Notes under the pieces: model-generated
The model's input: only the letters and a program-made list of their open reading frames with translations
The model's database searches: none
What the model was told of the DNA's origin: nothing
From: Candidatus Kapaibacterium sp.
GTDB taxonomy: Bacteria > Bacteroidota > Ignavibacteria > Kapaibacteriales > UBA2268
Length of the DNA stretch: 64,000 nucleotides
Assembly: GCA_938031175.1 (NCBI GenBank)
Contig: CALHGZ010000004.1
Span: 1,527-65,526, forward strand
Reading direction: 5' to 3'
Shown here: positions 23,268-34,480 of the stretch, one piece after another
Layout: every line of letters starts with the position of its first letter
Position numbering within the stretch: position 1 is the first letter of the stretch
Translations under genes and position numbers: made by a program

Positions 23268-24314
23268 TTACTCCGCGTATCGTACAATTCTTAAACCTGT
23301 GCAAATTGGATTTTCCGTGTAAATTCTTGCTGTTCGTCTTAAGTTATTAGTTCCATCGCAAAATCCACCACCGCGTGATACCTTAGGGCCATTAGTTTGG
23401 TGAAATGAGGGATCAATTGAATCCGATGATTTGTAATAATCAGGTTTATAAGTATCCCAGCACCATTCTCTGACATTACCAGACATATCGTAAAGACCAA
23501 ATTCATTTGGTAAATTTTTGCCTATTGGATGAGTGTGGTATGCTGAATTTGAGCTAAACCAAGCAACTTCATTAGCATCATTTGAGCCTGCATATAGGTA
23601 TTTTCCGCTTGCAAATTCCCATTCTGCTTCGGTTGGGAGTCGCCAACCTTTGGCGTTGGGCTTCCAAATTACTAATGAATCGATAATTTCATAGGATTGT
23701 TCAAGACCATCGCGTTTGGAAAGTTCATTGCAAAACATTATTGCCTCGAGCCATTTGATATTATGAACTGGATGATTTGGTTCTTTTGTAAGTGAAGGAT
23801 TATAATTCATGATTAGTTGCCATAATAGCTGAGTGATTTCAAATTTGCTGATATAGAAATCTTTCGAAATTTTAACACTATGAGGGGGTTCTTCATCCGG
23901 CAATCCTTCTGACGATCCCATTATGAAATTTCCAGCTTTAATTTTGATTAACTCAATGTCGGGGCGTTTTTTTATTGTTAGATAGATATGATTACTGGTA
24001 TCAGAATAATAGACAATTTTAAATTTACCTGAGTGGATATTTTTTGGTATAATAAATTTAATTATGATTTGATTCCATTTGATACAGTCAAAAGAAGGAA
24101 TAATTAATTCATCATTGTAAACCAGGTATGAATATTGATTTTGTTCACCGAAGTTTTTTCCATAAAGTGTTATTGTATCACCCCAGAAAGTTTGATTTTT
24201 GGAAACAGATTGAATGGTTGGTTTGCCAGTTTCTAAAGGGTTATTGTCATCATTGCACGAAACAAATAACAAGCTTGAGATAAAAATATAGAGTATATAT
24301 ATTATCGATTTCAT
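23268..24314 (-). CDS. Lipoprotein with IPT domain and FGE-sulfatase (SUMF1/EgtB/PvdO) domain
   Basis: Lipobox FVSC-NDD and motifs FIMGS, RLPTEAEWEFA, PNEFGLYDMSGNVREW, RGG, GLRIV. Confidence 0.9.
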   Translation of the reverse strand: MKSIIYILYIFISSLLFVSCNDDNNPLETGKPTIQSVSKNQTFWGDTITLYGKNFGEQNQYSYLVYNDELIIPSFDCIKWNQIIIKFIIPKNIHSGKFKIVYYSDTSNHIYLTIKKRPDIELIKIKAGNFIMGSSEGLPDEEPPHSVKISKDFYISKFEITQLLWQLIMNYNPSLTKEPNHPVHNIKWLEAIMFCNELSKRDGLEQSYEIIDSLVIWKPNAKGWRLPTEAEWEFASGKYLYAGSNDANEVAWFSSNSAYHTHPIGKNLPNEFGLYDMSGNVREWCWDTYKPDYYKSSDSIDPSFHQTNGPKVSRGGGFCDGTNNLRRTARIYTENPICTGLRIVRYAE

Positions 24315-24320
24315 CTAAAA

Positions 24321-25892
24321 TTAATGTTTATGAATATCCCGGTGCATAATTCTTCTCGATTGGAATAGTCTTTCTTCTTCAGGTAAAGACATTAACTGAT
24401 TATTCAAGTGCTTGTCATTCTCTCTTTGAAGTAAATCTGCAACATAATTAATAAGTAGATGAGGGAAAATTCCATTTCTTTCATAAAGATTTCTTACCTG
24501 TAGGAGCTTTTCAGCGGACTCTGAACAACTTGTGGCTAATTGTTCTAGATGTTCCATTGAGGCAGTTGCATAAATGTTAGTGCCTACTTTACTTGCCTTG
24601 GCAATGTTTATGGAATCTTTTTTATTAGTTAGCCCCCATTCGACTGCCATGCATATACCGGCTAAGAGCAAATGGGCATTTGCACTTCCATCCGGTGTTC
24701 TTAATTCAATTGTTTGGCGTGGTTCGTCGTGAACCATCTTTTCTTTTTGTTGAGGATTAATTTTCATAGCCAAGTTATTAAACTTTGTCCAGGCAAGTGG
24801 AACTCGTATCATGGCGCTTCGGTTTGAGTCGCTCCAGCATACTTTGGTTGGTGCTTCTTGATTTGGAACCAACCTCATATATGAGGCGGCAACCATATTA
24901 CCGAATGCAGTTAGGCTCGGAGCATATCTACATAAGCCACCAATCAACATTAATGCTTCATCAGATAGGTCACCATTTTTGTCAGTCATAATATTTTTAC
25001 CGTCTCTTTTCAGGAGCATATGAATATGTAAGCCATTTCCAGCGTGACCAATATCAATTTTAGGATAAAATGTTGCAATAAAATTATTCCGATAAGCTGT
25101 ATTTCTGATTATCCAGCTTGCTAAAACCATGCTATCAGCAGCATCTTCAATTGGGGCAGGTGTAAATTCTACCTCCATTTGTTCAGCTATTTTTCCATTT
25201 AATTCCGGATACATACTTTCTAAATGTTCAATATGTCCTACTTCGGCGTGAGCATATTTAACATTACCGAATATTTGGGCAATATTTTTGACCACTTCAT
25301 TCATAATTTTTGCGGTTTTAATGAATGGTTCGGCTGCGTGATATCCTTGTTGTTTTGGTAATGGATAATGTCTGCTTTCGGGTTCTCCGATTAGGTAAAA
25401 TTCAAGTTCACCTAATGCGTGAAGTTCGCAGTTTGTATTATTTTTTAAAAGTTTTGAAGCTCTTAGTAAAATGTTATCAGGTGTAAATTCAGCTAATTCA
25501 CCCTCACGGTTAAAGAATCGACAAATAAAGTCAATGCTTCCGCTATCGAAAGGATTAAAAAAAGCAGTCTTATAAACCGGTACTATATAAAGGTCGGATT
25601 TGCCAACGTCAACTATTCCTTTGAACAAAGAAGAGCCGTCAACACGTTCTCCTTCGGCTAAAATGGTTTCTACTTGTTTTCTGTCAATTATTGGAAGACG
25701 TAGCTCTTTAATCTTTCCATCGAGTGCTGTATAATGGAAAGTAATTCTTTCTAGATTTTTTTCTTTGATGACTTTTATAAAATCTTCTCGTGTAAATTCA
25801 TGTCTATCTTTACCAGTTAACAATGAAATTGGATTTGATAATGTGAATTGTTCCCGTTCAAATTTGACTAACTTACCCATTTGGTATCCCAT
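24321..25892 (-). CDS. Glutamine synthetase family protein (type I-like)
   Basis: DGSSLF, ELEFY, HAEVG..QMEVE, GNGLHIH, RLVPNQEAP, NRSAMIRVP, IELRTPD. Confidence 0.9.
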   Translation of the reverse strand: MGYQMGKLVKFEREQFTLSNPISLLTGKDRHEFTREDFIKVIKEKNLERITFHYTALDGKIKELRLPIIDRKQVETILAEGERVDGSSLFKGIVDVGKSDLYIVPVYKTAFFNPFDSGSIDFICRFFNREGELAEFTPDNILLRASKLLKNNTNCELHALGELEFYLIGEPESRHYPLPKQQGYHAAEPFIKTAKIMNEVVKNIAQIFGNVKYAHAEVGHIEHLESMYPELNGKIAEQMEVEFTPAPIEDAADSMVLASWIIRNTAYRNNFIATFYPKIDIGHAGNGLHIHMLLKRDGKNIMTDKNGDLSDEALMLIGGLCRYAPSLTAFGNMVAASYMRLVPNQEAPTKVCWSDSNRSAMIRVPLAWTKFNNLAMKINPQQKEKMVHDEPRQTIELRTPDGSANAHLLLAGICMAVEWGLTNKKDSINIAKASKVGTNIYATASMEHLEQLATSCSESAEKLLQVRNLYERNGIFPHLLINYVADLLQRENDKHLNNQLMSLPEEERLFQSRRIMHRDIHKH

Positions 25893-26262
25893 TTGTTTTA
25901 TAAAAATTTAAAATTATAAAAACGAAATATAAGTAAATTCAAGAATTTTGCAAATTTTAAAAGGGAAGGTGTAACAATAGTGTTTACAAATTTTTGAATG
26001 TATTTTTAAAATTTTAGGAATTTCACTAATTTGCAACTAATTATAATGCAAATTATTATGTTTAAAGCAAAAAAAATATACCACAATATCAAAATCAACA
26101 TGGAGCATTATGCTTCATCAGTTATACCTTTGCCCAAAACAAGAGCAAGCAAAATACTTGGCTTCAAGCATTATCAAACCGATGCACCAATTTAATTTTA
26201 CCTTTGTAAGTCACAACTTCAAAATTAACAATACATAATTTAAAACAACTAAGAGGTATTTT

Positions 26263-27177
26263 ATGAAAAAAGACTTTCTCAAAGTGCTTGATTTTACACG
26301 TGAAGAGATATTAGCCATATTCAAATTAGCTCAGGATATGAAAGCAAATAAGAAAAAATATGCAAAATCTTTAGAGGGTAAAACATTAGCTTTGATATTT
26401 GAGAAGCCATCTTTACGAACCCGAACCACATTTGATGTTGGAATACAACAATTAGGCGGTTTTTCAATATATTTATCACCAGCAGAGATTAACCTGGGCA
26501 AAAGAGAGTCTGTATATGATGTTGCTAAAAATTTGGAGCGTATGGTTGATGGCATAATGATTAGAACATTTGGTCATCATATAGTGGAAGATATGGCTAA
26601 ATATGCAAAAATTCCTATAATAAATGGATTAACTGATTATTCGCATCCTTGCCAGGCAATGGCTGATTTTTTAACTATTTTAGAAATCAAAGAGGATTTT
26701 AAGGGGCTTAAGTTATGTTACGTTGGTGATGGCAATAATGTAGCTCATTCTCTTATGGGTGCAGGTGCCCGATTAGGTGTTGATGTAACAATTGCTTGTC
26801 CACGAGGCTATGAACCAAACGTGATTGCATATTTGAATGTGAAAGAGGCGGCTAAAGAATCGGGCGCAAAAATCGAAATAGTTCACGACCCGGTTGAAGG
26901 CGTCAAAGGTGCAGATATAGTTTATACAGATGTCTGGGCATCTATGGGTCAAGAAGCTGAGGCAGAAAAGAGGAAACAAATATTTATGCCGTATCAGGTT
27001 AATGATAAACTAATGTCTTACGCCAATCCAGATGCAATATTTATGCATTGCTTGCCTGCGCATCGTGGCGAGGAAGTAACGGATAGTGTGATTGATGCTG
27101 AATATTCGGTTGTTTTCCAAGAAGCAGAAAATAGATTACACGTTCAGAAAGCAATTATGTATGAATTAATGAAATAA
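26263..27177 (+). CDS. argF: Ornithine carbamoyltransferase (probably catabolic ArcB role)
   Basis: SLRT, HPCQ, GDGNN, DVWASMG, HCLP, QEAENR. Confidence 0.95.
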   Translation: MKKDFLKVLDFTREEILAIFKLAQDMKANKKKYAKSLEGKTLALIFEKPSLRTRTTFDVGIQQLGGFSIYLSPAEINLGKRESVYDVAKNLERMVDGIMIRTFGHHIVEDMAKYAKIPIINGLTDYSHPCQAMADFLTILEIKEDFKGLKLCYVGDGNNVAHSLMGAGARLGVDVTIACPRGYEPNVIAYLNVKEAAKESGAKIEIVHDPVEGVKGADIVYTDVWASMGQEAEAEKRKQIFMPYQVNDKLMSYANPDAIFMHCLPAHRGEEVTDSVIDAEYSVVFQEAENRLHVQKAIMYELMK

Positions 27178-27182
27178 AAGAT

Positions 27183-28121
27183 ATGGAAAAAGTTGCTGTA
27201 TTAGCAGTTGGAGGCAATTCATTAATCCGTGCTGGTGAACGCGGAACAATCGAAGAACAGCTTTTCAATGCATATGCAACTGGGCGATCTGTTGCACAAT
27301 TAATTGCCGATGGATGGCATCTTGTAATAACCCACGGTAACGGTCCTCAAGCAGGAGCAGCTCTACTGCGTTCGGAAAGAGCTTCGAATGAAGTGTATCC
27401 TCATCCTCTAGATGTATGCGTTGCAACAACACAAGGAGAAATTGGTTATATACTGGAAAGAGCGATTAATTATCATCTTCGTCAACTTAATCTTAGAAAT
27501 AATGTAGTAACAATACCTACAATGGTGTTAGTGAATTCAAATGATCCTGCTTTCCAAAATCCAACTAAACCAATTGGACCATTCTATTCTAAAACTGAAG
27601 CTGAAGTTAGAAAAAAATTGGGCTGGAATATAATTGAAGATTCTGCACGTGGTTACAGAAGGGTTGTACCATCACCCGAACCTATAGATATATTGGAAAT
27701 TGAAGCAATTAAACAAATTGTAAATATTGGATTAACTTGTATAGCTGTTGGTGGTGGTGGAATCCCTGTAATTTATGAAAATGGAGATATTAAAGGTGTT
27801 GAAGCTGTTATTGATAAGGATAGATCATCAGCATTATTAGCTTCAAAACTTAAAGCAGAGACTTTTATAATTTCTACAGACACAGACAAGGTTTATTTGA
27901 ATTTTAAGAAAACCAATCAGCAAGGAATAGATAGAATAACAGTTTCCGAATTGCAGAAGTATTATGATGAAGGTCATTTCCCTGCTGGCAGTATGGGACC
28001 GAAGGTGGAAGCTGTAATAAAATTTTTGAAAAATGGTGGAAAAAGAGCTATAATTACCTCATATGAGTATTTAGTTGAGGCTTTAGATGGTTATGCTGGA
28101 ACACTGGTTCTACCTGATTAA
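27183..28121 (+). CDS. arcC: Carbamate kinase
   Basis: AVGGNS, THGNGPQ, PTKPIGPFY, RRVVPSP, EAVIDKD, GSMGPK. Confidence 0.97.
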   Translation: MEKVAVLAVGGNSLIRAGERGTIEEQLFNAYATGRSVAQLIADGWHLVITHGNGPQAGAALLRSERASNEVYPHPLDVCVATTQGEIGYILERAINYHLRQLNLRNNVVTIPTMVLVNSNDPAFQNPTKPIGPFYSKTEAEVRKKLGWNIIEDSARGYRRVVPSPEPIDILEIEAIKQIVNIGLTCIAVGGGGIPVIYENGDIKGVEAVIDKDRSSALLASKLKAETFIISTDTDKVYLNFKKTNQQGIDRITVSELQKYYDEGHFPAGSMGPKVEAVIKFLKNGGKRAIITSYEYLVEALDGYAGTLVLPD

Positions 28122-28170
28122 TTTTTCTTAAATTTACAAAATTAAATTTGATATAAAATTTTAAGAGGTA

Positions 28171-29094
28171 ATGATGAAATTAAAGCACATTATTGAATCA
28201 CAGCAGTTCACCGTTCCTTCATTATATGATTTATTTGAAAGAGCAGATCAAATGAAAAAAATTGTGAAGAGAGGCGGTACGCGTGATTATCAGAATAAAG
28301 TAATGGCGACCTTGTTTTATAAGCCATCAACCCGTACAAGGTTTTCTTTTGAATCGGCAATGTATCGTCTTGGTGGTAGTGTATTATCGACAGAACAGGC
28401 AAAAGAATTTTCATCGGAAATCGAGGGCGAAAATCTGGAGGATACTATACGTATTATATCAAACTATTCAGATGTGATAGTTTTGCGTCATTATGAAGAA
28501 GGGGGTGCCAAACGTGCAGCAGCGGTATCGCCGGTACCTATAATTAATGCTGGTGATGGTTCTGGTGGACAACATCCAACACAGGCTTTGCTTGATTTAT
28601 ACACTATTTATAGTGAATGTAAAACACTCGATGGTCTATCTGTAGCATTTGTTGGTGCATTAGACCAGGGAAGAACAGTACGGTCACTTGCTTATTTATT
28701 AGGCAAGTTCGATAGAATCAAATTATATTTTATTGCACCACTAGAAATGACCATCAAAAATGATATTTTGGAATATTTAGATGAAAGAGGAGTTTCATAC
28801 CAATTAGCTGATAGCACTGATGGAATAATAAATCGAGTTGATGTTGTCTATCAAACTAGAATAGATAAAAAGCGGCTCATTAATAAAGACGTAAAATTAT
28901 CACAATATAATATAGATAAAAATGTATTAAGCAAGATGAAATATAATTCAATCATAATGCATCCATTACCACGCTCAGTGGAAATAGATCCGGCTGTTGA
29001 TACGGATCCTCGAGCTGCATATTTTAGGCAAGCAGAAAATGGACTTTATGTTCGGATGGCTTTATTGACAATGCTTTTTGAAAATGAAGAATAA
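28171..29094 (+). CDS. Aspartate carbamoyltransferase-like enzyme (PyrB family) with substituted substrate-binding residues
   Basis: STRT, RH, NAGDG, HPTQ and HPLP are present, but it has SSEIEGE for SSxxKGE, GAL for GDL, and TRIDKKR for TRIQxER. Confidence 0.85.
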   Translation: MMKLKHIIESQQFTVPSLYDLFERADQMKKIVKRGGTRDYQNKVMATLFYKPSTRTRFSFESAMYRLGGSVLSTEQAKEFSSEIEGENLEDTIRIISNYSDVIVLRHYEEGGAKRAAAVSPVPIINAGDGSGGQHPTQALLDLYTIYSECKTLDGLSVAFVGALDQGRTVRSLAYLLGKFDRIKLYFIAPLEMTIKNDILEYLDERGVSYQLADSTDGIINRVDVVYQTRIDKKRLINKDVKLSQYNIDKNVLSKMKYNSIIMHPLPRSVEIDPAVDTDPRAAYFRQAENGLYVRMALLTMLFENEE

Positions 29095-29109
29095 ATTAAG
29101 GAGTTTTTT

Positions 29110-30306
29110 ATGACAACTCAAGATTATATCCAATTAGAAGAAAAATACGGTGCGCACAATTATCATCCCTTAGATGTAGTTATCAAAGAAGCGAAAGGTG
29201 TTTGGGTAACAGATGTAGATGGCAAGCGTTATCTAGATTGTCTTGCTGCATACTCAGCTGTTAATCAGGGACATTGCCATCCTAAAATTTTGGAAGCATT
29301 CATTGAACAAGCTAAAAAGGTTACCTTGACAAGTAGAGCATTCAGGAATGATAAACTACCGATATTCTATAAGAAATTGGCAGATATGACCGGATACGAA
29401 ATGTCCTTACCGATGAATTCAGGAGCTGAAGCGGTTGAAACTGCTATTAAAGTTTCAAGGCGTTGGGGCTATGATATCAAAAAAATTCCCGAGAACAAAG
29501 CCGAAATTATTGTAGCAGACGGTAATTTCCACGGAAGAACTACAACAATAGTTGGATTTTCGACAGATCCAATGTCATATCGAGGTTTTGGTCCCTATGC
29601 TCCCGGCTTCGTAATTGCGAAATATGGCGATGCTGATGATTTTCGCTCAAAAATAAATGAGAATACATCTGCCATTCTAATAGAACCGATACAGGGGGAA
29701 GGGGGAATTGTTATCCCCCCTGAGGGGTTTCTCCGAGAAGTAGAACAAATGTGCCGGGAAAATAATGTGCTTTTTGTATGCGATGAAATTCAGTCAGGTT
29801 TGGGTCGTAGTGGGCGTTTATTTGCTTTTGAGTACGAAGGAGTCCATCCGGATATTGTGATTATTGGCAAGGCATTATCAGGAGGATTTTATCCTGTATC
29901 AGCAATTCTTTCGAGTAGAGATATATTAATGGTAATTAAACCGGGTGAGCATGGCTCTACATTTGGAGGTAATCCATTGGCTGCTGCTGTTGCTGTTAAA
30001 GCTTTGGAAGTAATAGAGGAAGAAAATCTGATTCAACGTTCATTTGAATTGGGGGAATATTTTATGTCGAAACTGAGAGCAATTAATAATCCTCACATAA
30101 AATTAGTACGAGGCAGAGGATTATGGATTGGACTTGTACTTGATACTAAAGCTAGACCATATTGCGAAATGCTCAAAGAAGAAGGAATTCTATGCAAGGA
30201 GACGCATGAGACTATAATTAGATTTGCACCGCCACTTGTTATTACGAAGGAAGAAATTGATTGGGCGATTGAAAAAATTGAAAAAGTATTTAATGCACTA
30301 AATTAA
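29110..30306 (+). CDS. rocD: Ornithine--oxo-acid aminotransferase
   Basis: GAHNYHPL, AYSAVNQGHCHP, DEIQSGLGR, GKALSGG, HGSTFGGNP. Confidence 0.96.
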   Translation: MTTQDYIQLEEKYGAHNYHPLDVVIKEAKGVWVTDVDGKRYLDCLAAYSAVNQGHCHPKILEAFIEQAKKVTLTSRAFRNDKLPIFYKKLADMTGYEMSLPMNSGAEAVETAIKVSRRWGYDIKKIPENKAEIIVADGNFHGRTTTIVGFSTDPMSYRGFGPYAPGFVIAKYGDADDFRSKINENTSAILIEPIQGEGGIVIPPEGFLREVEQMCRENNVLFVCDEIQSGLGRSGRLFAFEYEGVHPDIVIIGKALSGGFYPVSAILSSRDILMVIKPGEHGSTFGGNPLAAAVAVKALEVIEEENLIQRSFELGEYFMSKLRAINNPHIKLVRGRGLWIGLVLDTKARPYCEMLKEEGILCKETHETIIRFAPPLVITKEEIDWAIEKIEKVFNALN

Positions 30307-30315
30307 AATGATGTT

Positions 30316-30972
30316 ATGGAAGAAAATTACATTAATGAATTTAATTTAGAGAACAAAACAAACGAATGGCTTAAGCAAGTAAGACAATTTAATATTCATA
30401 ATATGATTTTGAATAAGGATAAGTCAGCTTTACTTGTAATTGATATGCAGAAGTACTTTTTAAATCCTGCTTCAAGCGAATACACACCTGCAGGTTTAGT
30501 AATACTCAATAACATAAAAAGGCTCATAGATTTTTATCGTCGAGCTGAGCTACCAATAATATATACCCGTCACGCACATCATCACAATGGCACAGATGCT
30601 GGAATAATGAAGTGGTGGTGGCAGGGTATGTGCATAGAGGGAACGCCCGAATCCGAAGTTGCGGATGAAATTGCACCATTACCTACGGAAAGACAAATAA
30701 TTAAGCGGCGCTATTCTGCTTTTTATAATACAGATCTAGAGACAGTTCTAAGATGCCTCAAAGTTGAGGATTTAGTTATTTGTGGAATTATGACAAATAT
30801 GTGTTGCGAATCTACAGCAAGAGATGCTTACTTTAGGGATTTCAGAGTATTTTTTCTGGCTGATGCAACTGCAACTATTACTGAACAAATGCATATTGCA
30901 AGCCTTTTAAATCTTGCATTCGGATTTGCCTATGTAACGACGACAAATTCGCTCATTGAGTTGTTAAAATAA
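30316..30972 (+). CDS. Isochorismatase-family cysteine hydrolase (amidase/N-carbamoylase-like)
   Basis: Triad motifs VIDMQ, IKRRYSAF, TNMCCESTARDA. Confidence 0.92.
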   Translation: MEENYINEFNLENKTNEWLKQVRQFNIHNMILNKDKSALLVIDMQKYFLNPASSEYTPAGLVILNNIKRLIDFYRRAELPIIYTRHAHHHNGTDAGIMKWWWQGMCIEGTPESEVADEIAPLPTERQIIKRRYSAFYNTDLETVLRCLKVEDLVICGIMTNMCCESTARDAYFRDFRVFFLADATATITEQMHIASLLNLAFGFAYVTTTNSLIELLK

Positions 30973-30995
30973 TTTTGTTAATATTAGGAGGTAAA

Positions 30996-32318
30996 ATGTC
31001 AAACAAAAAGAAACGTGTAATAATATTAGGAGCAGCTGGTAGGGATTTTCATAATTTTAATATATACTATCGTGATTGCGAGACAACAGAAGTTGTTGCA
31101 TTTACTGCTGCCCAGATACCTGATATTGAAGGTAGATTATACCCACCGAATTTAGCAGGGAAAAACTATCCTAAAGGTATACCCATTTTTGCTGAGCAAG
31201 ATTTAGAGAAATTGATAAAAGAGTATGAAGTAGATGAGTGTGTACTTTCGTATAGCGATTTATCTTATGAGACAGTAATGCATTTAGGTTCAAGGGTATT
31301 AGCCTCAGGTGCAAAGTTTTCTATGTTGGGTTCTTATCAGACCATGTATGAATCCAGTAAACCGGTTATTTCGATAACAGCAGTTAGAACTGGATGTGGT
31401 AAAAGCCAGACAACAAGAGCGGTGGTCAAATTACTGAGGGATGCTGGTAAAAAAGTTGTTGCTGTACGTCATCCAATGCCATACGGGGACCTTGAATCGC
31501 AAAGGGTGCAAAGATTTGCTACAATTGAGGATTTGCATAAATTCAAGTGTACAATCGAAGAGATGGAAGAATATGAGCCTCATATAGCAATGGGCAGTAT
31601 AATTTATGCTGGGATTGATTATGAAGCTATATTGAAAGAAGCCGAAAAGGAAGCTGATGTCATCGTTTGGGATGGTGGAAATAATGATATGCCTTTTTAT
31701 AAGCCAGATTTATCAATTGTTGTTGTTGATCCCCTAAGACCAGGACACGAAATTAGCTATTACCCGGGGGAGGTAAATTTTAGAATGGCTGATATTATTG
31801 TAATTAACAAAATAGACTCTGCTTATCCAGAAGATATCGATTTTGTGCTTGAAAATATTCGCAATTATAATCCGAATGCTAATGTAATATTAGCAGCATC
31901 AGCTATTAAAGTGGATGATTCTGATTTGATTAAAAACAAGAGGGTTTTGGTTATCGAGGATGGTCCGACTCTTACACACGGCGAAATGGATATCGGTGCT
32001 GGAGTTGTCGCAGCTAAAAGATTCGGTGCAAAGGAAATCATTGACCCTAGACCATATATCGTCGGTACGATTAAACAAACCTTCCAAATATATCCTGATA
32101 TCGGAAATTTACTCCCTGCAATGGGTTATGGCGAACGTCAGATGAAGGATTTAGAAATTACAATAAATAATACTGATTGCGATACTGTAGTTATTGGAAC
32201 ACCAATTAATCTTGCTAGATTTATTAAAATCAATAAACCATATGTACGCGTATATTATGAGTTAGCTGAAATCGGGCATCCTAATCTTCAATCTTTAATT
32301 AAAGATTTTCTCAAATAA
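30996..32318 (+). CDS. Arginine synthetase (ArcE)-like protein; cyclic-2,3-diphosphoglycerate synthetase/COG2403 P-loop family
   Basis: GAAGRDFHNFN, AFTAAQIP, RTGCGKSQT, RHPMPYG, TIEEMEEYEPH, EDGPTLTHG, LPAMGY. SD GGAGG precedes ATG 30996. It shares an operon with OTCase and carbamate kinase. Confidence 0.8.
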   Translation: MSNKKKRVIILGAAGRDFHNFNIYYRDCETTEVVAFTAAQIPDIEGRLYPPNLAGKNYPKGIPIFAEQDLEKLIKEYEVDECVLSYSDLSYETVMHLGSRVLASGAKFSMLGSYQTMYESSKPVISITAVRTGCGKSQTTRAVVKLLRDAGKKVVAVRHPMPYGDLESQRVQRFATIEDLHKFKCTIEEMEEYEPHIAMGSIIYAGIDYEAILKEAEKEADVIVWDGGNNDMPFYKPDLSIVVVDPLRPGHEISYYPGEVNFRMADIIVINKIDSAYPEDIDFVLENIRNYNPNANVILAASAIKVDDSDLIKNKRVLVIEDGPTLTHGEMDIGAGVVAAKRFGAKEIIDPRPYIVGTIKQTFQIYPDIGNLLPAMGYGERQMKDLEITINNTDCDTVVIGTPINLARFIKINKPYVRVYYELAEIGHPNLQSLIKDFLK

Positions 32319-32339
32319 AGCAATAATAAAATTTGTAAG

Positions 32340-32372
32340 AAGCTGTCAGATGCTTATCTGACAGCTTTTTTT
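32340..32372 (+). terminator. Intrinsic terminator ending the arginine operon
   Basis: AAGCTGTCAGAT-GCTT-ATCTGACAGCTT followed by TTTTT. Confidence 0.9.
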
Positions 32373-32494: not shown

Positions 32495-32836
32495 ATGACA
32501 AGAATTGTCAGGTATTTTATAATTGCAGTAATTGGATTTATTCTAGTTAATTCAAATTTATTTGCTGAAGAAAAGAACAATGAAGTTATTTTCAAAGCAA
32601 CAATTACTAATGCATCAGCCAAGGAAAAATTGGAAACTATCGTAACTATGCTGAAAGGCGTGAATGAAGCTGAAGTAAATTTAGAGAGAAAAGAGCTAAA
32701 GGTAGAGTATAACCCGAACCTGATTAACACAGATATGATTATCTATACTGTTAAATGTTTGGGGTTTGATCTTACTGTGATTGAAGATAAGGAAAAAAAA
32801 GATGAGGACAAAAAGTTATCTGATACCCAAAATTAA
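32495..32836 (+). CDS. Secreted HMA-fold protein lacking the CxxC motif
   Basis: Signal peptide and LKGVNEAEVNLE..LKVEYNP..LGF typical of HMA; TITNASA stands where MxCxxC is expected. Confidence 0.75.
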   Translation: MTRIVRYFIIAVIGFILVNSNLFAEEKNNEVIFKATITNASAKEKLETIVTMLKGVNEAEVNLERKELKVEYNPNLINTDMIIYTVKCLGFDLTVIEDKEKKDEDKKLSDTQN

Positions 32837-32965: not shown

Positions 32966-34480
32966 ATGAGTAAAGTATATATAGTAGGTGCAGGTCCGGG
33001 AGATGAATCTTTAATAACAATTAAAGCAAGGGAATTATTATCCAAAGCTGACATTGTTTTGTATGATAATTTATTAAATCCAAGAATATTGAGCTATTGC
33101 AAAGATAATGCCGAGAAAATTTATGTAGGCAAAGTAGCAGGTAAACATACATTTCCCCAAGATGAAATAAACCAAATGCTTGTTAAATTTAGTAAGCAGG
33201 GAAAGGTTGTGATAAGGCTCAAAGGTGGTGATCCTTTAATTTTTGGACGAGGTTCGGAGGAAGCTTTATATTTGAAAGAGTCTGGTATTGATTTTGAAAT
33301 TGTACCTGGGATTACTTCTGCTTCCGGAGCTTCGGCTTACTCTGGTATACCATTGACTCATCGAAACTTAGTAACGCAAAGTATTTTTGTCACAGCCCAT
33401 GAGGCTCCTGAGAAAGATAATACCCAGGTACAGTGGGAGTTACTCGCAAAAATGAAAAATGCGACAATTGTAATTTATATGGGTGCCAAAATGTTAAAAA
33501 AAATAGCAGAAAATTTAATCAAAAATGGAATGGATGAAAATACACCGATTGCTATTATCCAAAATGCTACTTTGCCTCAGCAAAAAACAATTGCAAGTAA
33601 TTTAAAAAGTGTACTTTTATTTTCGGATGATTATGTAGAACCGCCAGTTATTAGTATAATAGGTGATACTGCTAAGTTGCACAATGATTTATCATGGTTT
33701 GAAAAGAAGATTTTGTTTGGTAAGCGAATTGTTATAACTCGAGCGCAAGATCAATCCAATAAGCTTTATAATTTACTTGCAAATGAAGGAGCCTGGGTTT
33801 TGCTCTTATCCTCGATAAAAACTGAATTTTCCGCACCAAGTGCCTTACTTGCCGATTTGCTTAAGAATAGATATGATTGGATCATTTTTTCAAGTGCAAA
33901 TGGAGTGAGGTATTTTTTCAAAGAGCTTTTTGCTGAAGGATTGGATTCACGCTCTTTATACGGGAAAAAAATTGCTGTTATAGGATCTGCAACTGCAGAA
34001 ACATTATGGCAATATGGTATAACTGCTGATTTAATACCATCACAGTATATTGGTAAATCCTTAATCGAAGAGCTTTCAAATCAAATTTTACTATCAAATT
34101 CCAAAATTTTAAGGGTAAAAGGTGATTTTGAGAATGATTATATTGCTGATTCGCTTATTCAATTTGGAGCGGATGTTGATTTATATGAAGTATATAAAAT
34201 AAAACAAGGCAAACCTGATAAAGAAGTAATAAATGATATAATTGAAAATGGTGCTAATGCAGTTGTTTTTACAAGTTCATCTACAGTAGTAAATTTTTTT
34301 AAAATAATCGGTTCAAACGCTCTATCGGTATTGAAGGAAGCAAACGTTATATCAATCGGTCCAATGACCACCAATAAATTAATTGAATATGGAATTACTC
34401 ACACATACACAGCCAAAGAGCAAACAGTCAAAGGGATTTTCGAAAAAATAATGGAAATTTATAGTAAAAGTGCAATCTAA
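32966..34480 (+). CDS. cobA: Uroporphyrinogen-III C-methyltransferase / uroporphyrinogen-III synthase fusion (CobA-HemD)
   Basis: VGAGPGD, RLKGGDP, VPGITS, GIPLTHR; C-terminal ITRA..FSSANGV..FTSSSTV..IGPMT. Confidence 0.95.
   Translation: MSKVYIVGAGPGDESLITIKARELLSKADIVLYDNLLNPRILSYCKDNAEKIYVGKVAGKHTFPQDEINQMLVKFSKQGKVVIRLKGGDPLIFGRGSEEALYLKESGIDFEIVPGITSASGASAYSGIPLTHRNLVTQSIFVTAHEAPEKDNTQVQWELLAKMKNATIVIYMGAKMLKKIAENLIKNGMDENTPIAIIQNATLPQQKTIASNLKSVLLFSDDYVEPPVISIIGDTAKLHNDLSWFEKKILFGKRIVITRAQDQSNKLYNLLANEGAWVLLLSSIKTEFSAPSALLADLLKNRYDWIIFSSANGVRYFFKELFAEGLDSRSLYGKKIAVIGSATAETLWQYGITADLIPSQYIGKSLIEELSNQILLSNSKILRVKGDFENDYIADSLIQFGADVDLYEVYKIKQGKPDKEVINDIIENGANAVVFTSSSTVVNFFKIIGSNALSVLKEANVISIGPMTTNKLIEYGITHTYTAKEQTVKGIFEKIMEIYSKSAI

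Follow-up and report, generated by a model that had tools for sequence, protein, structure and literature searches.

A 64,000-nt stretch of a Candidatus Kapaibacterium sp. genome (assembly GCA_938031175.1, here G000; contig CALHGZ010000004.1, positions 1,527 to 65,526), referred to as a whole as the window, carries six co-oriented genes, which probably constitute a single operon whose products form a bacterial version of the arginine synthetase (ArcE) pathway, running in the degradative direction on imported arginine. They encode, in order, an ornithine carbamoyltransferase (OTCase; gene OTC), a carbamate kinase (CK), a paralogue from the aspartate carbamoyltransferase (ATCase) branch, an ornithine aminotransferase (OAT), a hydrolase of the isochorismatase family and an orthologue of ArcE. 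In the pathway we propose, ArcE would convert imported arginine, ADP and Pi to citrulline, NH3 and ATP, OTCase would cleave citrulline phosphorolytically to ornithine and carbamoyl phosphate (CP), and CK would form a second ATP from CP and ADP. A separate housekeeping PyrB would probably take part of the CP for pyrimidines, since no carbamoyl-phosphate synthetase (CPS) was found in the genome. Ornithine would be turned by OAT into glutamate semialdehyde/pyrroline-5-carboxylate (P5C), from which a RocA-type enzyme could form glutamate or a ProC-like enzyme proline. With CPS missing, the supply of CP is probably as important to the organism as the extra ATP.

While the gene identities, the anatomy of the operon, its conservation and the gene content of G000 and its relatives are observed directly, the direction of flux, co-transcription, an arginine auxotrophy and the role in CP supply are suggested by analogy with the genetics of Thermococcus kodakarensis. 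According to the available text of PMC11032458, the ArcE pathway yields 2 ATP per arginine, compared to 1 for the arginine deiminase (ADI) pathway. In the CPS-less T. kodakarensis, deletion of arcE or arcB leads to pyrimidine auxotrophy while deletion of arcC does not, and CK is unable to replace ArcE/ArcB as CP source (available text of PMC13260591).

Identity of the sixth gene

The 440-aa product of the sixth gene matches no Pfam or NCBIfam family. Its nearest database relatives, with identities of 74-100%, come from metagenome-assembled genomes (MAGs) of Candidatus Kapaibacterium, Ignavibacteria and Bacteroidota, and go by the names 'cyclic 2,3-diphosphoglycerate synthase', 'predicted GTPase' or 'hypothetical' in NCBI and JGI. 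The first-pass annotation of the window had foreseen that pipelines would label the gene as a GTPase or cyclic 2,3-diphosphoglycerate (cDPG) synthetase, as the public records indeed do. The family is large, comprising 3695 representatives at E<=1e-3 and 637 at E<=1e-30. The window protein aligns without a single gap over 439 aa, at 64% identity and 81% positives, with the homologues of P. furiosus and of Thermococcus sp. 21S9, the latter standing for a 90% cluster of 201 members, and all seven Thermococcales sequences compared (7/7) lie at 64-65% identity. Three Thermoproteota homologues, two of them named Desulfurococcales and one Thermoprotei, are 59% identical, more distant family members 46-50%, and the homologues found in 80 loci from many bacterial and archaeal phyla 48-66%.

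TK2200 of T. kodakarensis has been described as ArcE, and according to the available text of PMC11032458, arcE homologues are found all across the Thermococcales, in the majority of Desulfurococcales and Thermoproteales, and in numerous bacteria, Bacteroidota among them. They are described there as annotated as GTPase, as lying near arcB/arcC in some genomes, as mostly complementing ADI and as having only low similarity to cDPG synthase. The AlphaFold model of the window protein, built from a 27-sequence alignment, reached a pLDDT of 92.1 and a pTM of 0.90, and a Foldseek search with it returned at rank 3 the LpxK entry 4EHY (E 3e-8, TM (target) 0.63), which is the entry superposed on the TK2200p model in the description of its LpxK-like P-loop fold (available text of PMC11032458). 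A conserved G-K (GCGKS) hardly varies across the aligned family members.

Taken at face value, the public names would make the sixth gene a cDPG synthetase or a GTPase whose arginine-gene neighbourhood is incidental, and cDPG synthetases (Methanothermus fervidus, PDB 8ORK/8ORU; also 9SXB) are in fact the top PDB matches of the protein both by sequence and by fold. They are also the origin of the public name. The match is only partial, however: the best sequence hit, 9SXB, scores 35.6 bits and 8ORU 20 bits, with a family profile the score rises to 73.5 bits, and the similarity is confined to about 110-150 residues. The superposition on the M. fervidus enzyme, although the top fold match, shows 16% identity and a TM of 0.43-0.46. 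In contrast to this stands the full-length identity of 64% to Thermococcales homologues, which bear the same misleading names: the Thermococcus and Pyrococcus records P0436, P0448, P0449, P0451 and P0494 are called 'cyclic 2,3-diphosphoglycerate synthase' or 'GTPase' (NCBI, UniRef), so that the misannotation is general. Moreover, the context of the gene is one of arginine and CP metabolism, and its association with OTC and/or CK is seen repeatedly, in different phyla and in three arrangements of the genes. Since identity is 64% to the Thermococcus and Pyrococcus homologues and about 16% to solved cDPG synthetases, the sixth gene is, on sequence grounds, an orthologue of ArcE rather than a cDPG synthetase, the latter being a reading we regard as barely credible. 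Its product is predicted to catalyse the reversible conversion of arginine, ADP and Pi to citrulline, NH3 and ATP. The proposal of an ArcE-type enzyme that acts with OTCase and CK in place of ADI, made beforehand from the COG2403 affiliation of the gene, is thus supported by the Thermococcales identities, the LpxK-like fold, the merely remote kinship with cDPG synthetase, the failure to find an ADI gene in the genome and the presence of a RocA-type gene for the step from ornithine to glutamate.

Gene content, conservation and probable direction of the pathway

The remaining pathway enzymes were assigned by curated models and motifs. For the first gene, scores of 422 bits with TIGR00658 (cut-off 281) and 441 bits with NF001986 were obtained, and its translation contains DVWASMG (DxxxSMG) and HCLP, the motifs of OTCases (PMC4581275); it is the sole OTCase of G000. 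CK matches TIGR00746 at 374 bits (cut-off 358), and OAT matches TIGR01885 at 561 bits (cut-off 378) and NF003145 at 623 bits, slightly under the cut-off of 656. The position of OAT is kept across the operons of relatives, which makes it a conserved member of the Kapaibacteria-type operon.

G000 is a MAG of 2.69 Mb in 18 contigs, 96.99% complete. Profile searches of this genome gave no match to ADI (PF02274), while the control search matched 3/14 genomes, and did not find ArgG, ArgC or ProA; ArgH had no match above cut-off. CarB was not found, its best match of 59 bits belonging to other ATP-grasp enzymes, and neither was CarA (best match 42 bits). The only gene with an arginase fold scores as an agmatinase, reaching 219 bits with TIGR01230 (cut-off 174) as against 99.5 with the arginase model (cut-off 228). 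The search for arcA, rocF, argG and argH called for by the first-pass annotation thus gave no match above cut-off. Owing to the missing arginine, ornithine and CPS genes, the genome has no known de novo route to ornithine, arginine or carbamoyl phosphate. Present, on the other hand, are a canonical PyrB on contig 1 (NF002032, 351 bits), dihydroorotate dehydrogenase (PyrD) and OMP decarboxylase (PyrF), the latter found in 31/31 relatives. The anticipated branch from ornithine to P5C and glutamate would be served by a RocA-type glutamate-semialdehyde dehydrogenase encoded outside the operon (TIGR01237, 725 bits, cut-off 660). In addition, a ProC-like gene (G000:C9:241418-242161; 176 bits, slightly below the cut-off of 197) hints at proline synthesis from arginine-derived ornithine; among the 31 relatives ProC occurs in only 2 other genomes and ProA in 1/31.

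The housekeeping PyrB is of the RxQxER, HPGP type and has pgpA and prmC as its neighbours (G000:C1:141696-142628; L015:8697-9629), with no carB nearby. In sister families, a PyrB match is located within about 1 kb of a CarB match (e.g. G019, G023, G027, G029), which points to a loss of carB from its place next to pyrB.

Conservation was followed in a set of 31 genomes, 19 of them from the family of the window including G000 and 12 from sister families. ArcE is present in 14/19 and 0/12 of these, respectively, and CK, OTC and the ATCase-like gene travel with it: CK occurs in 13/14 ArcE-positive but 0/17 ArcE-negative genomes, and ArcE-positive genomes hold three carbamoyltransferases (OTC, ATCase-like, housekeeping PyrB), with one fragmented exception holding two, whereas ArcE-negative family members hold the housekeeping PyrB only. 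The synteny survey that had been proposed shows the order OTC-CK-ATClike-OAT-(slot)-ArcE in 10/11 ArcE loci of relatives, four of which are cut at a contig end, and in one locus of an Ignavibacteriaceae MAG (L100). In G009 and G263, the ArcE gene lies apart from OTC-CK-ATClike-OAT, and elsewhere the orders ArcE-OTC-CK-ATClike (L121, L122) and OTC-CK-ATClike-ArcE (L123) are found. In a cross-phylum sample of 80 of the 596 loci with ArcE homologues, CK was encoded within about 8 kb of the homologue in 14/80 and OTCase in 8/80.

The distribution of CarB is suggestive in this respect. All eight genomes missing CarB among the 31 relatives (8/31) belong to the family of the window and carry ArcE, and all 5 family members without ArcE have CarB. 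In a sample of 251 genomes of the phylum, ArcE is present in 50, 39 of which belong to the same class; CarB is missing in four (G000, G118, G158, G193), and 3 of these 4 carry ArcE, compared to 47/247 genomes with CarB. We regard this co-occurrence as suggestive support for the CP-supply idea, not as a test of it.

The same set of genes could also be read in the anabolic direction, with CK making CP from carbamate, OAT ornithine from glutamate semialdehyde, OTCase citrulline, and ArcE arginine from citrulline, NH3 and ATP; ArcE would then replace the missing ArgG and ArgH, and the ATCase-like enzyme would supply pyrimidine synthesis. ArgG, ArgH and CPS were indeed not found in G000, a GlnA-like gene lies divergently upstream of the operon, and, as stated in the available text of PMC11032458, ArcE is reversible, forms arginine from citrulline in vivo in T. 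kodakarensis and has been considered for a biosynthetic role in organisms without ArgG/ArgH. We nevertheless set this reading aside as improbable, because ArgC and ProA were both not found: no route to ornithine turned up, and with ProA missing, OAT would have no glutamate semialdehyde to work on. Furthermore, the biosynthetic candidates discussed in that text possess CPS and ornithine synthesis, neither of which was found in G000, CK failed to replace ArcE/ArcB for CP in T. kodakarensis (available text of PMC13260591), and the RocA gene needed for a degradative branch is encoded in G000.

Several observations do weigh against the degradative, CP-supplying operon that we prefer. CK could in principle make CP itself, and arginine may be synthesized from salvaged citrulline or ornithine, since ArcE is reversible and ArgG and ArgH are missing. 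Six ArcE-positive relatives retain CarB, so that the operon must do more than stand in for CPS, and G193, a complete-looking Bacteroidota genome in a single contig of 6.0 Mb, has neither CarB (E<=1e-150) nor ArcE. The co-occurrence counts come from kin genomes, which overstates their independence, and G000 itself prompted the hypothesis, while the absences were read from a MAG that is 97% complete, with single family models. The characterised TK2200 is represented in our comparisons by other Thermococcales proteins. Finally, co-transcription and the direction of flux are what we infer.

The carbamate kinase-linked transcarbamylase paralogue

The third gene scores 303 bits with TIGR00670, above the cut-off of 236.95, for which reason pipelines will name it ATCase, and shares 42% of its residues with E. 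coli PyrB. With respect to the latter, STRTR, R105, HPTQ, R167, R229 and HPLPR are kept, so that all motifs of the carbamoyl-phosphate site (SxRT, HPxQ, HxLP) are in place. The second-substrate site, in contrast, is altered: Q231 is replaced by D (TRIDKKR) and K84 by E. Both positions matter for aspartate, as RxQxER is the ATCase 240s-loop motif including Q231, the beta-carboxyl of aspartate is anchored by R229 and Q231, and its alpha-carboxyl is positioned by R167 and K84 (PMC4581275). The change is not peculiar to the window copy. Among its 120 closest database homologues (75-100% identity, named aspartate carbamoyltransferase), position 231 was readable in 119 and is D in 94, E in 9, N in 6, V in 4, P in 2, I in 2 and H and L in 1 each, while Q was not encountered; position 84 is K in only 19/105, and HPLPR is present in 119/120. 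The gene thus fails an ATCase test at the aspartate site (RxQxER/K84), although curated hidden Markov models accept it. Of the designation 'ATCase-like enzyme' given initially, the model match therefore stands and the aspartate-site signature does not, and the gene is tied to CK.

Within the operons of relatives, the ATCase-like gene is 70-80% identical, or 59-80% if cut or divergent copies are counted, and it lies directly downstream of CK in all 16 loci in which that flank is present (16/16). It occurs only in genomes that also hold a canonical PyrB. A 55%-identical homologue in another Bacteroidota genome (L120) retains the canonical RxQxER and K84, while still more diverged CK-linked copies (L118, L119), in genomes without ArcE, have lost STRTR and R229. 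Around the degenerate gene in L118 (G137:C1:1779000-1795000) and L119, we find a cluster of the anaerobic purine-degradation type with a selenium-dependent xanthine dehydrogenase, a YgeW knotted carbamoyltransferase, a YgeY hydrolase, a CysK-like PLP enzyme, carbamate kinase and XdhAB. No further neighbour gene that would hint at the substrate of the ATCase-like enzyme is shared by the alternative arrangements L121, L122 and L124. A ureidoglycine carbamoyltransferase was considered and is not supported, given that H(T/S)LP is the mark of that enzyme (PMC4581275) and the third gene has HPLPR in its place.

As far as the sequence goes, the third gene may encode an ATCase of low affinity, a transcarbamylase that breaks down a different N-carbamoyl compound, or neither of the two. 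A working ATCase isozyme, co-expressed with arginine breakdown and draining arginine-derived CP into pyrimidines, would fit the model score, the complete set of CP-site residues together with R167 and R229, the 42% identity to E. coli PyrB and the lack of CPS in G000. We consider it doubtful, however, with the aspartate-binding Q231 never seen (0/119) and K84 this rare, and with a canonical RxQxER PyrB encoded elsewhere in G000 and being the sole one in ArcE-negative relatives. In addition, the third gene always adjoins CK, as is typical of catabolic transcarbamylases, and its diverged copies sit in the ygeW/ygeY/xanthine-dehydrogenase cluster. In comparison with E. coli PyrB, the gene thus shares the ATCase branch, SxRT, HPxQ, HPLP, R167 and R229, but has Rx(D/E/N...)x.. 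instead of RxQxER, no conserved K84 and a strict adjacency to CK. A literature search returned nothing on a catabolic ATCase. It is tentatively conceivable that the CK-coupled paralogue is a new catabolic transcarbamylase phosphorolysing another N-carbamoyl compound, and that the ArcE pathway is the sole CP source of the CPS-less bacteria; if true, the operon would feed carbamate kinase from a second ureido substrate beside the ArcE pathway. The pathway we propose does not explain the ATCase-like gene, nor the genus-specific hydrolase described below.

Operon anatomy, known systems and significance

The six + strand open reading frames span 26263-32318, with inter-gene gaps of 5, 49, 15, 9 and 23 nt when ArcE is started at ATG 30996 (Table 1). 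This start is that of the 440-aa database form P0001, and the Thermococcus alignment also begins there. A hairpin begins 18 nt past the ArcE stop. The layout described in the first-pass annotation, six co-oriented genes with gaps of 5-49 nt ahead of a single strong terminator and no arcA or arginase gene within the cluster, is therefore recovered from the reading-frame list and the 15-pair stem, and its product names agree with the family scans, with the third gene passing the ATCase model and the sixth lacking a Pfam or NCBIfam family. Judged by their spacing, their conservation and the one strong terminator, the six genes are presumably co-transcribed. Sequencing runs listed as containing the stretch comprise four marine-metagenome DNA runs of one study, which may be its source, and one soil run with a small share, but no RNA run.

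Table 1. Features of the operon region in window coordinates, and the gene occupying the variable slot in relatives (locus coordinates)
Feature	Position	Strand	Basis or remark
Presumed promoter region	25893..26262	.	370-nt AT-rich intergenic region between divergent GlnA-like gene and operon
Ornithine carbamoyltransferase, arcB/argF type	26263..27177	+	TIGR00658, NF001986, motifs
Carbamate kinase, arcC	27183..28121	+	TIGR00746
ATCase-branch carbamoyltransferase paralogue	28171..29094	+	TIGR00670; CP site intact, second-substrate site altered
Ornithine--oxo-acid aminotransferase, rocD type	29110..30306	+	TIGR01885
Isochorismatase-family (cysteine) hydrolase, genus-specific insert in variable slot	30316..30972	+	PF00857
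ArcE, arginine synthetase orthologue (by sequence)	30996..32318	+	Identity to Thermococcales homologues; TTG 30975 is an alternative start
Intrinsic-terminator-like hairpin at operon end	32337..32370	+	15-pair stem, 4-nt loop, T-rich tail
NagZ-like beta-N-acetylhexosaminidase gene, slot between OAT and ArcE	L017:8866-9948, L018:3739-4788, L021:3824-4858, L024:3996-5006		

By number alone, terminator-like hits in the region are at chance level (3 vs 3.8 +/- 2.0 in shuffles), and the other two are 5-6-bp stems, both within the hydrolase gene. Several sigma-70-like matches occur upstream of the operon, with little excess over shuffled sequence (38 vs 30.7 +/- 4.8). A perfect 9-nt inverted repeat, TAATTTGCA-N11-TGCAAATTA, is located upstream of the operon at 26027-26055; a comparison with the region ahead of the operon in 10 relatives did not reveal it there, and no ArgR (C-domain) was found in G000.

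The fifth gene matches PF00857 at 170 bits, while matches to RutB (89 bits, cut-off 378) and BiuH are sub-threshold. At E<=1e-10 the hydrolase was not detected in the ArcE loci of 11 relatives, whereas the only other genome of the genus probably has it, to judge from the distances between the genes. In four relatives, the slot between OAT and ArcE is instead occupied by the NagZ-like gene (NF003740, 184 bits, below the cut-off of 207), and in four further loci it contains no listed open reading frame and measures about 50-80 nt, or 236 nt in L027; the remaining loci show no more than small stretches there. As an insert confined to the genus, the hydrolase does not belong to the conserved part of the system, and we see no reason to link it with the pathway. 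Of the two extra enzymes by which the operon was seen as extended, OAT is conserved but the hydrolase is not.

Divergently from the operon, a glutamine-synthetase-like gene of 523 aa is encoded at 24321-25892 (-); it contains Gln-synt_C and Gln-synt_N domains but scores only 219 bits with TIGR00653 (cut-off 429). Two relatives (L019, L023) have the same neighbour (61-65% identity) ahead of their operon, and the enzyme could take up ammonia freed from arginine. The further flanks are unrelated to the operon, namely an FGE-sulfatase-domain protein (23268-24314, -), a small protein with an HMA-domain match below threshold (32495-32836, +) and a fused uroporphyrinogen-III methyltransferase/synthase (32966-34480, +).

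Among known systems, the pathway of T. kodakarensis (ArcE TK2200, ArcB TK0871, ArcC TK2158; available text of PMC11032458 and PMC13260591) comes closest, consisting of the same three enzymes in an organism that likewise has no ADI, ArgG/ArgH or CPS but keeps its pyrimidine genes, and in which ornithine is a possible proline precursor. In contrast to the archaeon, where the gene numbers are far apart, the host here is a bacterium and the genes lie in one operon, to which OAT, the CK-linked ATCase-branch paralogue and, in this genus, the cysteine hydrolase are added. With the arcABC operons of the ADI pathway, the present one shares the clustering of OTCase and CK with an arginine-to-citrulline enzyme and the formation of ATP from carbamoyl phosphate, but no ArcA (PF02274) was found, and a predicted ATP-forming P-loop enzyme replaces the hydrolytic step.

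It should be noted that pathway and enzyme are already published, and that the available text of PMC11032458 shows its authors to have noted both bacterial homologues, including those of Bacteroidota, and the clustering with arcB/arcC; its supplement may already show such clusters. Our literature search found 'arginine synthetase' papers, none of them on a bacterium, and nothing on Kapabacteria together with carbamate kinase. New are the operon form OTC-CK-ATClike-OAT-ArcE and the CK-coupled ATCase-branch paralogue, as well as the evidence for a set of bacterial genomes without CPS, ArgG/ArgH and ornithine synthesis that nonetheless retain the operon.

It was not until 2024 that arginine synthetase was described, and it has so far been studied in a single archaeon. 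The operon reported here offers a clean bacterial case, in which the whole route would be contained in one transcription unit, and its genomic setting, with no ADI, ArgG/ArgH or CPS, mirrors that of the archaeon. With it, one can test whether some bacteria rely on arginine for their carbamoyl phosphate. The ATCase-like gene, named aspartate carbamoyltransferase although it lacks the aspartate-binding motif, points to an uncharacterised transcarbamylase specificity. As the cDPG synthetase or GTPase label is systematic, this ATP-yielding pathway would be overlooked when the metabolism of Kapaibacteria and Ignavibacteria is reconstructed from MAGs.

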